A DNA stretch of 49,809 nucleotides from Candidatus Woesearchaeota archaeon (GCA_018303205.1 JAGVYP010000019.1:1-49809), one strand, 5' to 3'. Shown: positions 2,756 through 49,383, counted from the first letter of the stretch. Translations and numbers: made by a program. The notes: a model not told the origin generated them from the letters alone.

Positions 2756-3043
2756 GGAAGGTCATTGCCTTAGAGCAAAATCAGATTTTCGAGCGATTCA
2801 TGCCAGATTTTTAATAAAATCTGGTAAAAACTTGTGGGTTTCGCTTTGCTCAAGCCCACTAACAGAAACAGTGCACGATCATAAATTTATGAGTAGCATC
2901 GTGCATGCGACTTTATGTCGCATCTGTTTCTACCAGATCCCATGGAAATGCAACATTTCTAGGGGCTCAAGAAACAAAAGGTTTCTTTGAGCTTTGTTAA
3001 AGATCTGTGAGGGACGAGCAGTAGATCTCCGCAATGACCTTCC
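2756..3043 (+). repeat. Family A element, expanded copy A2 containing about 180 nt of inserted hairpin modules
   Basis: 13-bp outer stem GGAAGGTCATTGC/GCAATGACCTTCC with conserved A motifs at both ends. After GATTCATGC comes a run of hairpins (CCAGATTTT/AAAATCTGG, GTGGG/CCCAC, ATGCGAC/GTCGCAT, GCTCAAGAAAC/GTTTCTTTGAGC). Confidence 0.85.
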
Positions 3044-3113
3044 AAAGAAGAATAGAGGATAAAACAGAGAGACAGATAAAATTGATAAAAAAAAATAAGA
3101 AGACTAAAAAGCA

Positions 3114-10701: not shown

Positions 10702-10849
10702 ATGTCAAAAACCACCGATCATAGATTGGTGGCATGTCGCGACATGCCATTATCCATAGTGGTTTTTGAGCATGCTCAAAAATTTTCCTCTGGTAATTGT
10801 CCATTGGCTTCGAGCCACTCTTCAGAGACTAGTGGAAAATTTTTGACAT
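10702..10849. repeat. Family C modular palindromic element, copy C1
   Basis: Terminal inverted repeat ATGTCAAAAA/TTTTTGACAT. Two modules joined at GAGCATGCTC. Internal palindromes GGCATGTCGCGACATGCC, CCACCGATC/GATTGGTGG and TGGCT/AGCCA. The first ~70 nt are nearly identical to the copy starting at 30358. Confidence 0.85.
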
Positions 10850-11028: not shown

Positions 11029-12327
11029 ATGAAAAAATACCTTACTCTTCAGGAAGCCATAGAACAAGGCTCAGGAAAGGTAGCTTTGCAAGGCTGGGTG
11101 TATCGCGAACGAGGCTCATCTAAGATAAAATTTCTTGTACTCAGAGATCATACTACTATTCTTCAATGTGTTGTTGAAAAAGAAAAAATAGGAGAAAAAA
11201 AGTTTAGTCTGATTGACAAAATACAAATTGAAACCTCTGTACGCTTAGAAGGAACGATCAAAAAAGATGAACGAGCTCCCACAGGATATGAAGTCAATGT
11301 GGAAGACCTTGAAATTGTAGGAATAGCAAATGAGTTTCCTATCCAAAAAGATCAGAGCGTTGAATTTTTAGCAGACAACAGGCATTTATGGCTCAGATCG
11401 AGAAGGATGACAGCAATTCTCAAAATACGGAGCACGGTTTTTCAAGCCATAGATACGTATTTTAGAAATAATAAGTTTTATTTGTACCACAGCCCTATCT
11501 TTTCTCCGAATAATTGCGAAGGAGGAAGCACAGTATTCAAAGTAGACTATTTTGGTAACGAAATGTTTCTCACACAGTCCTGGCAATTATATGCAGAAGC
11601 AGGTATTTTTTCTTTAGGAAATATCTACACCATTGCACCTTCCTTTAGAGCTGAAAGAAGCAAAACATCACGACATTTGACAGAATACTGGCATGCAGAA
11701 ATGGAAATGGTCTGGAACACTTTTGAAGATGTCATGCACCATGCAGAAGGAGTTCTCAAATTTATCCTGAAAGAAGTTTTAGACAAACACCAAGAAGAAT
11801 TCAAAATACTTGAAAGAGACCCCAAAAAGTTAGAGCCTGCACTGAAAAAACCCTTCATAAAAATGACCTATACTGATGCTTTAAAGATTTTAAAAGAAAA
11901 ATGTAAAATGGACGTTGAATGGGGAAAAGATTTGCGTACCCTAGAAGAAGAGAAACTGACCAAGTTATATGATGTGCCCTTACTGGTAACACGATATCCT
12001 AAAAAAATTAAAGCATTTTACATGAAAGAAGACCCTGAAAATTCTGAAGTAGTACTCGGAATGGATTGCCTTGCACCAGAAGGCTATGGAGAAATTATCG
12101 GAGGCTCACAAAGAGAAGAAAACGCAGAAGAAATTGAAAAAAGACTGCGAGAACAAGGAGAAGATCCCTCAGTTTATGGTTGGTATTTGGATTTGAGAAA
12201 ATACGGCTCAGTTCCCCACGGAGGATTTGGATTAGGTGTTGAAAGAGTTATTACCTGGATTTGCGGACTAGACAACATCAAAGATGCAATTCCCTTTCCC
12301 AGAACCATGTTCAGATTTACTCCATGA
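11029..12327 (+). CDS. asnS: Asparagine--tRNA ligase (archaeal type)
   Basis: GWVYRER, RHLWLRS, FLTQSWQLYAE, FRAERSKTSRHLTEYWHAEME, EIIGGSQRE, YGSVPHGGFGLGVER. The real start is ATG 11029; the upstream ORF extension runs through repeat C1. Confidence 0.93.
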   Translation: MKKYLTLQEAIEQGSGKVALQGWVYRERGSSKIKFLVLRDHTTILQCVVEKEKIGEKKFSLIDKIQIETSVRLEGTIKKDERAPTGYEVNVEDLEIVGIANEFPIQKDQSVEFLADNRHLWLRSRRMTAILKIRSTVFQAIDTYFRNNKFYLYHSPIFSPNNCEGGSTVFKVDYFGNEMFLTQSWQLYAEAGIFSLGNIYTIAPSFRAERSKTSRHLTEYWHAEMEMVWNTFEDVMHHAEGVLKFILKEVLDKHQEEFKILERDPKKLEPALKKPFIKMTYTDALKILKEKCKMDVEWGKDLRTLEEEKLTKLYDVPLLVTRYPKKIKAFYMKEDPENSEVVLGMDCLAPEGYGEIIGGSQREENAEEIEKRLREQGEDPSVYGWYLDLRKYGSVPHGGFGLGVERVITWICGLDNIKDAIPFPRTMFRFTP

Positions 12328-12668
12328 GTATAGAACAATACATCAAAAACAATACGTTCTGAAGCATTACCGTTCGCAGGCCGAAGAAGTCCATTGTGAT
12401 CATTGCCTTGGAAAAGGTCACCGTCCTCAGGTCGAGCGTGTAAGCCAAAAGAATCAACGAAGTTCAAGGGGATACTCCCCACGGGAATGAACGATAGAGA
12501 AACAAAAAGGTAACTACGCGAGAAGACGGTGACCAAAAAAGAAAATAAATGAGCAGCAAATCTCTGTGATGACCTTCCAAAAAGAAGAGAAAAAAAGATA
12601 AAATAAACATAAAAAAATGAATAGTGTAAATCAAAAATGAGTATAGAACAATACATCAAAAACAATAC
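12324..12668 (+). mobile_element. Insertion scar: 32-bp direct repeat enclosing nested B and A elements
   Basis: ATGAGTATAGAACAATACATCAAAAACAATAC occurs at 12324-12355 and 12637-12668. Between them lie a degenerate B left arm (12360-12384), an A left arm (12398-12412), a full B copy and an A right arm (12551-12578). Confidence 0.7.
12416..12534 (+). repeat. Family B element, copy B2 (nested inside family A arms)
   Basis: Stem GGTCACCGTC/GACGGTGACC. CTCAGGTCGA-GCGT...ACGC-GAGAA, inner GTTCA/TGAAC enclosing AGGGGATACTCCCCACGGGA. Confidence 0.85.
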
Positions 12669-12879
12669 CCTTTCCATTCTTGTGAAACCTAACTCTTCCA
12701 AAACAGAAATTCTTGGCTGGGATGAAGAAAAGCAAGCTTTGAGAATTGCAATTCATGCTCCTCCTGAAGACAATAAAGCAAATAAAGAACTTCTAAAATT
12801 TCTGAAAAAAACATTGAAAAGAAAAGTTGAATTGATTAAAGGTAAAACTTCAAGAGAGAAAGTAGTTAGGATTTCTTAA
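12637..12879 (+). CDS. DUF167/UPF0235 (YggU-like) protein
   Basis: VKPNSSKTEI, APPEDNKANKEL, LIKGKTSREK. Confidence 0.88.
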   Translation: MSIEQYIKNNTLSILVKPNSSKTEILGWDEEKQALRIAIHAPPEDNKANKELLKFLKKTLKRKVELIKGKTSREKVVRIS

Positions 12880-30357: not shown

Positions 30358-30501
30358 ATGTCAAAAACCACCAATCATAGATTGGTGGCATGTAGCGACA
30401 TGCCACTATCATAGTGGTTTTTGAGCACGCCAAAATTCCACATATTCCTTCGTGGTTTACGAAGTAAACCACCATTCAAAGAATGGTGGAATTTTTAGCG
30501 T
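30358..30501. repeat. Family C modular palindromic element, copy C2
   Basis: Module 1 (ATGTCAAAAACCAC...GTGGTTTTTGAGCA) is near-identical to C1. Module 2 (CGCCAAAATTCCAC...GTGGAATTTTTAGCG) carries different internal hairpins (GTGGTTTAC/GTAAACCAC, CCATTC/GAATGG). Confidence 0.85.
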
Positions 30502-49255: not shown

Positions 49256-49383
49256 TGAAGCGTTACCGTCCTCAGGTCGAGCTTCTGAGACAAGATGAAG
49301 AAACACTGACAAGAGGGTTGTCTCATCCGGAGAATGTCAGTTATAGACGAAAATATTGCAAGCGAGAAGACGGTACCGCTTCA
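49256..49383 (+). repeat. Family B element, copy B5
   Basis: 15-bp stem with 1 mismatch, TGAAGCGTTACCGTC/GACGGTACCGCTTCA. CTCAGGTCGA-GCTT...AAGC-GAGAA, inner CTGACA/TGTCAG enclosing AGAGGGTTG-TCTC/GAGA. Confidence 0.85.

Follow-up and report, generated by a model that had tools for sequence, protein, structure and literature searches.

In a 49,809-nt stretch of DNA from a Candidatus Woesearchaeota archaeon (GCA_018303205.1 JAGVYP010000019.1:1-49809; hereafter, the window), the first 32 nt of a DUF167 gene occur twice, once across the stop codon of the upstream asparagine–tRNA ligase gene asnS and once at the start of the intact DUF167 gene, and the two copies enclose a 281-nt block built from two families of repeats, A and B. 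Very probably, a single insertion-type event left this duplication as a scar where two genes adjoin tightly. Most likely, the upstream copy marks the original junction at which the two genes overlapped and which a single non-canonical insertion split. We give a probability of about 0.5 to the full history, in which asnS and DUF167 once overlapped by ATGA and were then separated by one event that placed the ready-made 281-bp block and duplicated the first 32 nt of DUF167.

The repeat is an exact 32-mer, ATGAGTATAGAACAATACATCAAAAACAATAC, located at 12324-12355 (copy 1) and 12637-12668 (copy 2), with a start-to-start distance of 313 nt, as the original prediction had stated. The match ends sharply, with not one further base shared on either side, and the 32-mer has only these two copies in the assembly (G000; 1.42 Mb, 74 contigs, 85% complete). 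As a control for chance, none of 509 orientation-matched pairs of mismatched flanks exceeded 23 nt, against 32 nt at asnS/DUF167. Copy 1 opens with the A that closes the last asnS codon (CCA TGA) and forms an ATGA overlap with the asnS stop; the asnS gene (11029..12327, on the + strand like the other features of this locus; NCBIfam NF003037, E 4e-155) encodes a protein ending in ...RFTP and has its TGA inside copy 1. Together with 7 nt of the block, copy 1 reads as a 12-codon relic open reading frame (ORF), MSIEQYIKNNTF*, at 12324..12362. Copy 2 is the native 5′ end of an 80-aa DUF167 gene (12637..12879; TIGR00251, E 5e-22), whose N-terminus, MSIEQYIKNNT, aligns with MNIEQYVHNNT in the orthologue of G004, a genome of another genus of the same family. 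The DUF167 gene is present in 36 of 41 related genomes, G000 counted. Its frame in G004 (L007:88-267) stops after 59 codons, compared with 80 in G000, and may be truncated. With asnS and DUF167 both intact, the earlier proposals that copy 2 opens the complete gene and that the gene start was regenerated in a way that lets the host gene survive were borne out.

The block (12356-12636) contains, in order, a B left-arm relic, which is a B element with its interior deleted (12361..12395; 71% over 28 nt in the repeat search), an A-type left arm made of the P1 5′ strand and CCTTGGA, with no matching right arm (12395..12412; from the sequence and the A alignment), a complete B element with P1 GGTCACCGTC / GACGGTGACC (12416..12534; nhmmer, 95 bits), an orphan A-type right arm with the 3′ half of P3, CTCT and GTGATGACCTTCC (12551..12578; repeat search, and nhmmer model positions 87-122), and an A-rich tail of the type that recurs 3′ of A copies (12579..12636; from the flanks of the A alignment). 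The left edge of the block lies at most 5 nt from the start of the relic. This order of parts was as first described, with the relic matching the copy at 49257 in ~20 of 25 nt by hand count instead of the 21 initially given. One amendment concerns the two A arms: the left arm is of the GATCATTGCC type and the right arm of the GTGATGACC type, two different P1 classes that are not complementary, so the arms cannot pair and are not two halves of one A element.

The internal junctions of the block recur elsewhere in the genome. The junction between the A left arm and B, CCTTGGAAAAGGTCACC, is identical at G000:C2, and a similar junction occurs at C66; the relic together with the A left arm matches G000:C24:47837-47888 at 85% identity over 52 nt; and the same type of orphan A right arm is found behind B at C33 and C69 and behind a complete A at C24. 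These recurrences indicated that the stack is a recurring composite, pre-assembled before it reached the site as one piece, and therefore that it was not built at asnS/DUF167 by repeated use of one hotspot, as had been suggested. Apart from the 12-codon stub the block has no ORF, and terminal inverted repeats are absent from its ends, GTTCTGAAGC... and ...GTAAATCAAAA. The A-rich 3′ tract, previously regarded as an insertion scar, turned out to be a recurring purine-rich sequence of A copies and not a poly(A)-like homopolymer. The 60 nt 3′ of A copies contain 44-53% A in all four gene-orientation classes, and this independence from the orientation of the neighbouring gene argues that the tract travels with the A element.

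Mis-assembly of the repeat, whether by joining copies from different strains or through a collapsed graph loop, is extremely improbable. Four public sequencing runs from four studies contain the stretch in Logan contigs (k=31), in each case with 0 differences: the contig of run X4 (12013-12371) goes from asnS across copy 1 and 16 nt into the block, those of runs X1 (12326-12666) and X2 (12324-12666) cover copy 1 and the whole block and run into copy 2, and that of run X3 (12450-12732) goes from within the block across copy 2 into the body of DUF167. All junctions thus exist in reads from several studies. The fragmentation of the assembly into 74 contigs would fit an artefact, as would the break of the X1 and X2 contigs at the 32-nt repeat, but such a break is what a k=31 graph must produce, and for the same reason no single contig spans both copies. 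The read check that had been proposed therefore supported both junctions. All 31-mers of the empty allele also occur in the filled site, which makes k=31 contigs uninformative about that allele; no asnS-to-DUF167 joint was among those listed, and its lack carries no weight. None of the public runs listed was an RNA run containing the asnS/DUF167 locus.

The 32-bp repeat differs from the footprint that A and B normally leave. Alignment of young copies with their flanks placed the core at the tip of a longer outer stem that starts with GG and ends with CC, and these shells are flanked by a 9-bp direct repeat that is different for each copy (GATCTTCCA, GTTCTTTTT, GATTTTAAA etc.). A scan for an exact 9-mer duplication beside inverted ends matching at at least 6 of 8 positions retrieved 6 of 69 A copies, where mismatched flanks predict 0.3, and 6 of 34 B copies, where they predict 0, and nine insertions, all with perfect 9-bp duplications, passed a stricter filter. 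Only 12 of the 103 full-length copies carry this signature; most are bare cores with no detectable duplication, which could reflect age or another way of spreading. The same A core was found in at least four different outer shells.

Two DDE_Tnp_1 genes, 32% identical to each other, are encoded in G000, and their products scored 131.6 and 139.1 bits with the NCBIfam IS5-family model NF033579, just below its cut-off of 140. The first insertion sequence (IS; L119:1076-2093 = G000:C66:14048-15065) encodes a 304-aa DDE_Tnp_1+DUF772 transposase and has 17-nt ends, GGCTAATATGAAACCCT, and the repeats on its two sides agree at 8 of 9 positions. The second (L120:1073-2148 = G000:C1:5202-6277) encodes a 323-aa DDE_Tnp_1 transposase; its inverted ends are ~14 nt long (GGCTCTGTAGAAAAC...), and it is flanked by a repeat of 8 bp. 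One A-bearing copy, at C14:11124, has the ends of the first IS as its outer 17 nt, without a single difference, and three others, at C69, C27 and C74, are a few bases off; the young B shell shares only 8 nt, GGCTCTGT, with the second IS. Ends of IS type (GGCTAATATGAAACCCT and GGSTSTGTC) surround 4 of 69 A and 7 of 34 B copies, none of which is the asnS/DUF167 block, and three further shells are visible besides these two counted types. Judged by these ends, the A and B families have an autonomous partner in the same genome. No protein with at least 50% identity in more than three copies emerged from a search of G000 for multi-copy transposases, and a PF00872 (IS256-type) search of G000 gave no match. 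Elements of the IS903 group make 9-bp duplications. The 9-bp duplications, together with the ends shared with an IS5-family element, indicated that A and B normally move by short-duplication DDE transposition, with the 32-bp repeat as an exception. The claim that A and B are mobile was therefore correct, with its proof lying in the 12 copies with 9-bp duplications elsewhere and not at asnS/DUF167. Target duplications of insertion sequences span 1-14 bp according to an excerpt of PMC11708052, and an excerpt of a census places a woesearchaeal genome among the most MITE-dense archaea (MITE, miniature inverted-repeat transposable element; PMC11602168).

The identity of copy 1 as the older junction is suggested by the C-terminus of the asnS product, AsnRS. 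The terminal motif ...FPR-x-x-R-x-x-P, followed by the stop, lies at the same position in 21 of 21 sequences (20 relatives and G000), and the TGA that copy 1 contains therefore sits where the ancestral stop was; the AsnRS of G004, 81% identical, ends RFNP-TAA and is followed by a convergent gene. Removal of copy 1 would give an AsnRS ending in ..TPF*, one residue longer, an ending seen in 0 of 20 relatives. This favours copy 1 as the old junction and the block with copy 2 as displaced downstream.

The history that we favour would begin with asnS and DUF167 overlapping by ATGA, and the predicted empty-site join would read ...TTTACTCC-ATGAGT...AATAC-CCTTTCC without the block. A single event would then have inserted the pre-assembled block, comprising the B relic, the A left arm, the whole B, the orphan A right arm and the A-rich tail, and the same event would have doubled the first 32 nt of DUF167. 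At the asnS stop, copy 1 would survive as a dead stub of 12 codons, and copy 2 would start DUF167 behind the block, where the A-rich tail may act as a new promoter or leader for the gene. Such an event would be unlike the usual IS5-type, 9-bp transposition of the A and B families. More likely sources would be repair of a widely staggered break or a template switch during replication, in which the block was copied from elsewhere in the genome or from another locus and synthesis was re-primed 32 nt behind the point of departure.

Several observations weigh against this history. First, asnS adjoins DUF167 in 0 of 40 related loci, and no empty site was found among 40 relatives and metagenome contigs, in which the closest DUF167 relative is only 63% identical. 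In 25 of the 40 related loci DUF167 shares its locus with a tfs homologue, which in most cases abuts or overlaps it and is itself preceded by a signal-peptidase-like gene; with sip-tfs-DUF167 as the ancestral order, an asnS/DUF167 overlap needs an earlier, unexplained relocation of DUF167. Second, no full-length donor of the block was found in G000, the best paralogue being 80.5% identical over 154 nt, and the B element of the block ranks only 20th of 34 for nearest-neighbour identity (77%). A missing donor and an old-looking B fit poorly with a perfect 32/32 repeat, unless the donor is unassembled in this 85% complete genome, is foreign, or the copies have been kept alike. Third, a long flanking repeat is not a trait of the families. 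When all A and B matches in G000 were grouped into 128 loci and their 150-nt flanks were compared, 126 had no comparable repeat, the two others being asnS/DUF167 (32 nt) and G000:C28 (18 nt). Likewise, 64 of 64 A loci of other genomes (67 model matches minus three, two partial and one cut at the locus end, among the matches listed) had no exact flanking repeat longer than 11 nt outside the element. The proposed check of other copies for flanking duplications thus brought out no long repeat common to the families. At G000:C28:9741-9998 (L118:1742-1999), the 18-nt repeat AAAAATACAAAAAAATTG flanks a bare B and an A-rich tail between co-directional genes, and excision of the block with one repeat would restore a TGA-N4-ATG junction, which makes this locus a possible second case of long duplication. 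However, the C28 repeat is A-rich and could be due to chance: 16 nt was reached in 3 of 636 control pairs, and one of the 509 orientation-matched pairs exceeded 16, at 23. The genes flanking C28 were not found in G004.

The relocation of DUF167 can be followed in part. In G004 the order is tfs, B element, DUF167, and G000 retains sip-tfs-B at C35:3800-4929, followed by ~300 nt of non-coding sequence and an unrelated gene. The B elements just after the tfs stop in the two genomes (G000:C35:4790-4929 and L007:303-427 of G004) have the derived motifs GGGYGAGCGAAT and CGCGARCAGATGG in common. Orthologous B elements behind tfs in both genera indicated that B has been held at this site since before the genera split and that DUF167 left the site in the G000 lineage. 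At a second conserved site, an A element lies beside the orthologue of C71:11980-13470, and the two orthologous sites imply that some copies are old and retained. These data also fit a different history, in which one chain of template switches moved DUF167 from behind tfs to the end of asnS and the two genes never overlapped. Copying would have left asnS at its stop, taken in 32 nt of the DUF167 start and then 281 nt of a composite locus, and returned for the whole gene. The ancestral sip-tfs-DUF167 order, the tfs-B-DUF167 arrangement of G004 and the non-coding sequence in the place of DUF167 at C35 all show that the gene did move, and a putative AT microhomology of 2 nt, between the ATG and an ancestral CCA TAA stop (5 of 21 orthologues have CCATAA), would have kept the stop in frame. 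Such a chain nevertheless requires three switches in one event. Thus two histories fit the data, an overlap with DUF167 that was later split or one multi-step template-switch event, and we hold the latter possible but rather doubtful.

The original prediction had preferred target-primed (retro-type) or replicative insertion of the A/B stack over DDE transposition, with a long, variable duplication and an A-rich 3′ tail. As in the target-primed insertion of short and long interspersed nuclear elements (SINEs and LINEs), a long duplication does flank a unit with an A-rich 3′ side at asnS/DUF167, and both loci with long repeats have repeats of unlike length and blocks that end A-rich. G000 also encodes a reverse transcriptase (RVT_1, E 2e-23). 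However, the documented insertions of the A and B families have 9-bp duplications and DDE-type inverted ends of the IS5 kind, the A-rich tract is independent of context, and variable long duplications at many copies, as SINE-like elements would leave, are contradicted by the counts of 2 in 128 and 0 in 64. The sole reverse transcriptase (L121:2-1642, G000:C21; at least 546 aa, cut by the contig end) has LGNLTSQ, YVDD and a C-terminal HTH_40 domain, and from the first of these motifs we take it to be of the diversity-generating retroelement type. No LINE-like reverse transcriptase or endonuclease match was obtained in one RVT_1 search of the 85% complete genome, and no link between the L121 enzyme and A or B was found. 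Target-primed or replicative insertion is therefore very unlikely; A and B behave as ordinary DDE/MITE elements, and the long duplication is a one-off.

Two further explanations of the repeat were weighed against an insertion scar. In one, copy 1 works as a 12-codon leader ORF coupled to asnS, its translation alters the folding of the B and A arms and so sets DUF167 expression, and the two copies are kept identical. Maintenance of this kind would agree with a 32/32 identical repeat around elements that look old and with a stub that ends 7 nt into the block, and the B P1 5′ strand (AAGGTCACCG) has, as judged by eye and not by computation, two candidate partners, the 3′ strand of the same B and the orphan A right arm, a layout also present at C69. 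Yet folding of 12356-12600 as one RNA gave a stability like that of shuffled sequence (z -1.0), no comparable leader occurs at other A or B loci (128 in G000 and 64 A loci elsewhere), and the model accounts for the maintenance of the repeat and not for its origin; we consider it unlikely. In the other, the two copies would be the attL/attR pair of a site-specific integrating element that carried the DUF167 start and was mostly deleted later. Integrase-mediated insertion does yield identical direct repeats of ~30 nt that rebuild a gene end. The block, however, contains only A and B modules, which are chromosomal repeats, and no ORF except the stub, and of the window genes scanned none close by encodes an integrase, no search aimed at integrase families having been made. 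This origin is highly improbable.

Profiles built from BLAST-collected copies gave 88 A and 50 B matches in G000 with nhmmer, fragments counted. Rfam 15 returned 0 matches at gathering score over the window, and an A copy and a B copy gave only chance-level matches at E up to 10. A 43-copy alignment defined the A fold as a 10-bp terminal stem, a CUU bulge, a 4-bp GGAG/CUCC helix and two hairpins, whose loops GAUUCAUGCA and GAUCAACGGA are invariant or nearly so. Compensatory changes were found in 23 of 27 A pairs, 97.8% of cells were paired compared with 73.4% in shuffles, and 290 double changes were counted compared with 78. Of 500 shuffles, none reached the observed values for cells paired, pairs or cells with double change, or covariation score, and 33 did so for further pair types; slid controls of the alignment were 33-49% paired. 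The B element of the block, aligned with 24 other B copies, showed compensatory changes in 16 of 19 predicted pairs. This covariation is that of a structured RNA, and a constraint on DNA hairpins would give the same pattern; G-U and A-C mismatches (14 versus 8 by hand count) do not decide the strand. Between co-directional genes, 41 A copies are sense and 14 antisense by our own rough ORF calls. The median identity of a full-length copy to its nearest neighbour is 86% in A and 80% in B, with a few subfamilies at 95-99%. At window positions 2758-3053, the left part of an A element (to GATTCATGC) and its right arm lie ~215 nt apart, and the intervening hairpin-rich sequence is nested in the P2 loop, like an insert in the same loop at G000:C14:11124.

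With a covariance model, A gave 72 matches in G000 and 39 in G004 and no match in the nine remaining genomes of the family; across the order, 5 of 141 sampled genomes matched, G000 counted. In G099, from another family of the order, at least 26 A matches were found, eight of them with an identical score of 70.7 bits, which points to a recent burst within one A subfamily. Scanning species-representative genomes for a motif gave at least 84 stretches, and 67 of 80 loci made from those listed match the A model; over the whole collection, the motif pattern is estimated to produce well over a hundred chance matches. Among the matches listed, nearly all A-positive loci are in metagenome-assembled genomes labelled Candidatus Woesearchaeota, some are in genomes labelled Methanosarcinales or Nanoarchaeota (labels as recorded), the 13 non-matching loci include singletons in bacterial records, and the GC content of the A element ranges from 0.35 to 0.63 across genomes with the fold kept. 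A scan of viral contigs for the A core gave 0 matches. The A family is thus patchy among Woesearchaeota-labelled genomes, and the same probably applies to B.

A and B resemble IS5-derived prokaryotic MITEs in being non-coding, 110-240 nt long, intergenic, multi-copy and patchy among genomes, with a subset that carries the terminal inverted repeats of an IS of the same genome and 9-bp duplications. They differ in that a structured core is conserved rather than the ends, with covarying stems and invariant loops; the A core occurs in at least four different outer shells, only the 4 A and 7 B copies noted above lie in the two counted shells, and most copies have neither a shell nor a detectable duplication. 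The 281-bp block itself departs further from MITEs, with no inverted ends and a 32-bp instead of a 9-bp duplication. Bacterial REP/BIME, Correia/NEMIS and ERIC repeats are likewise abundant, structured and intergenic, form composite mosaics and often lie between co-directional genes with an orientation bias. A and B, however, have no sequence or Rfam relation to them, reside in an archaeal host, and have as core a 117-nt three-way junction and not a simple hairpin.

The A and B cores behave like selected structures, with covarying stems, invariant loops, a fold kept over a wide GC range and at least two copies orthologous between genera. Tentatively, they could be two undescribed, selected modules of structured RNA (or single-strand DNA) in Woesearchaeota and not transposon debris, kept at orthologous sites across genera and riding in unrelated IS5-type shells; a second route, independent of transposase, might also copy them into tight gene junctions, where it would leave long duplications and an A-rich leader or promoter that faces outward and would split operons without killing genes, although we doubt that this whole picture is correct. 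If the cores are functional RNAs, they would represent new multi-copy RNA families of an uncultured archaeal lineage. Much of the apparently mysterious intergenic structure of this DPANN genome consists of these two repeat families, the movement of which is explained in part by IS5-family transposases with 9-bp duplications, a result of wider bearing on how DPANN genomes are read; the duplication at asnS/DUF167 is a small curiosity beside it, a repeat block that would have split a translationally coupled gene pair and left both genes intact.

Upstream of the duplication in all nine clean 9-bp insertions (C71:5826, C9:2870, C19:15386, C73:2153, C55:18838, C53:5236, C69:15435, C65:3332 and C13:26252), at a distance of 3-8 nt, lies a TATA-like box (TATAAA, TTTAAA or TTAAAA). 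Targeting of promoters was considered but is not the preferred reading, since a mirror motif lies downstream in five of the nine and the second IS (L120) sits in a palindromic AT-rich site. The insertion target looks like a palindromic AT-rich preference, with promoter-proximal targeting as a less likely alternative.

Neighbouring genes in the window encode a PACE-CTERM S-layer protein, an archaeal-type NucS and TrmB-like regulators, which together point to a DPANN archaeon as the host. A third repeat, 53 nt long and 94% identical between its copies at window positions 10702-10754 and 30358-30410, contains two hairpins, CCACCGATCATAGATTGGTGG and GCATGTCGCGACATGC; the copy upstream of asnS creates a false N-terminal extension of the asnS ORF.

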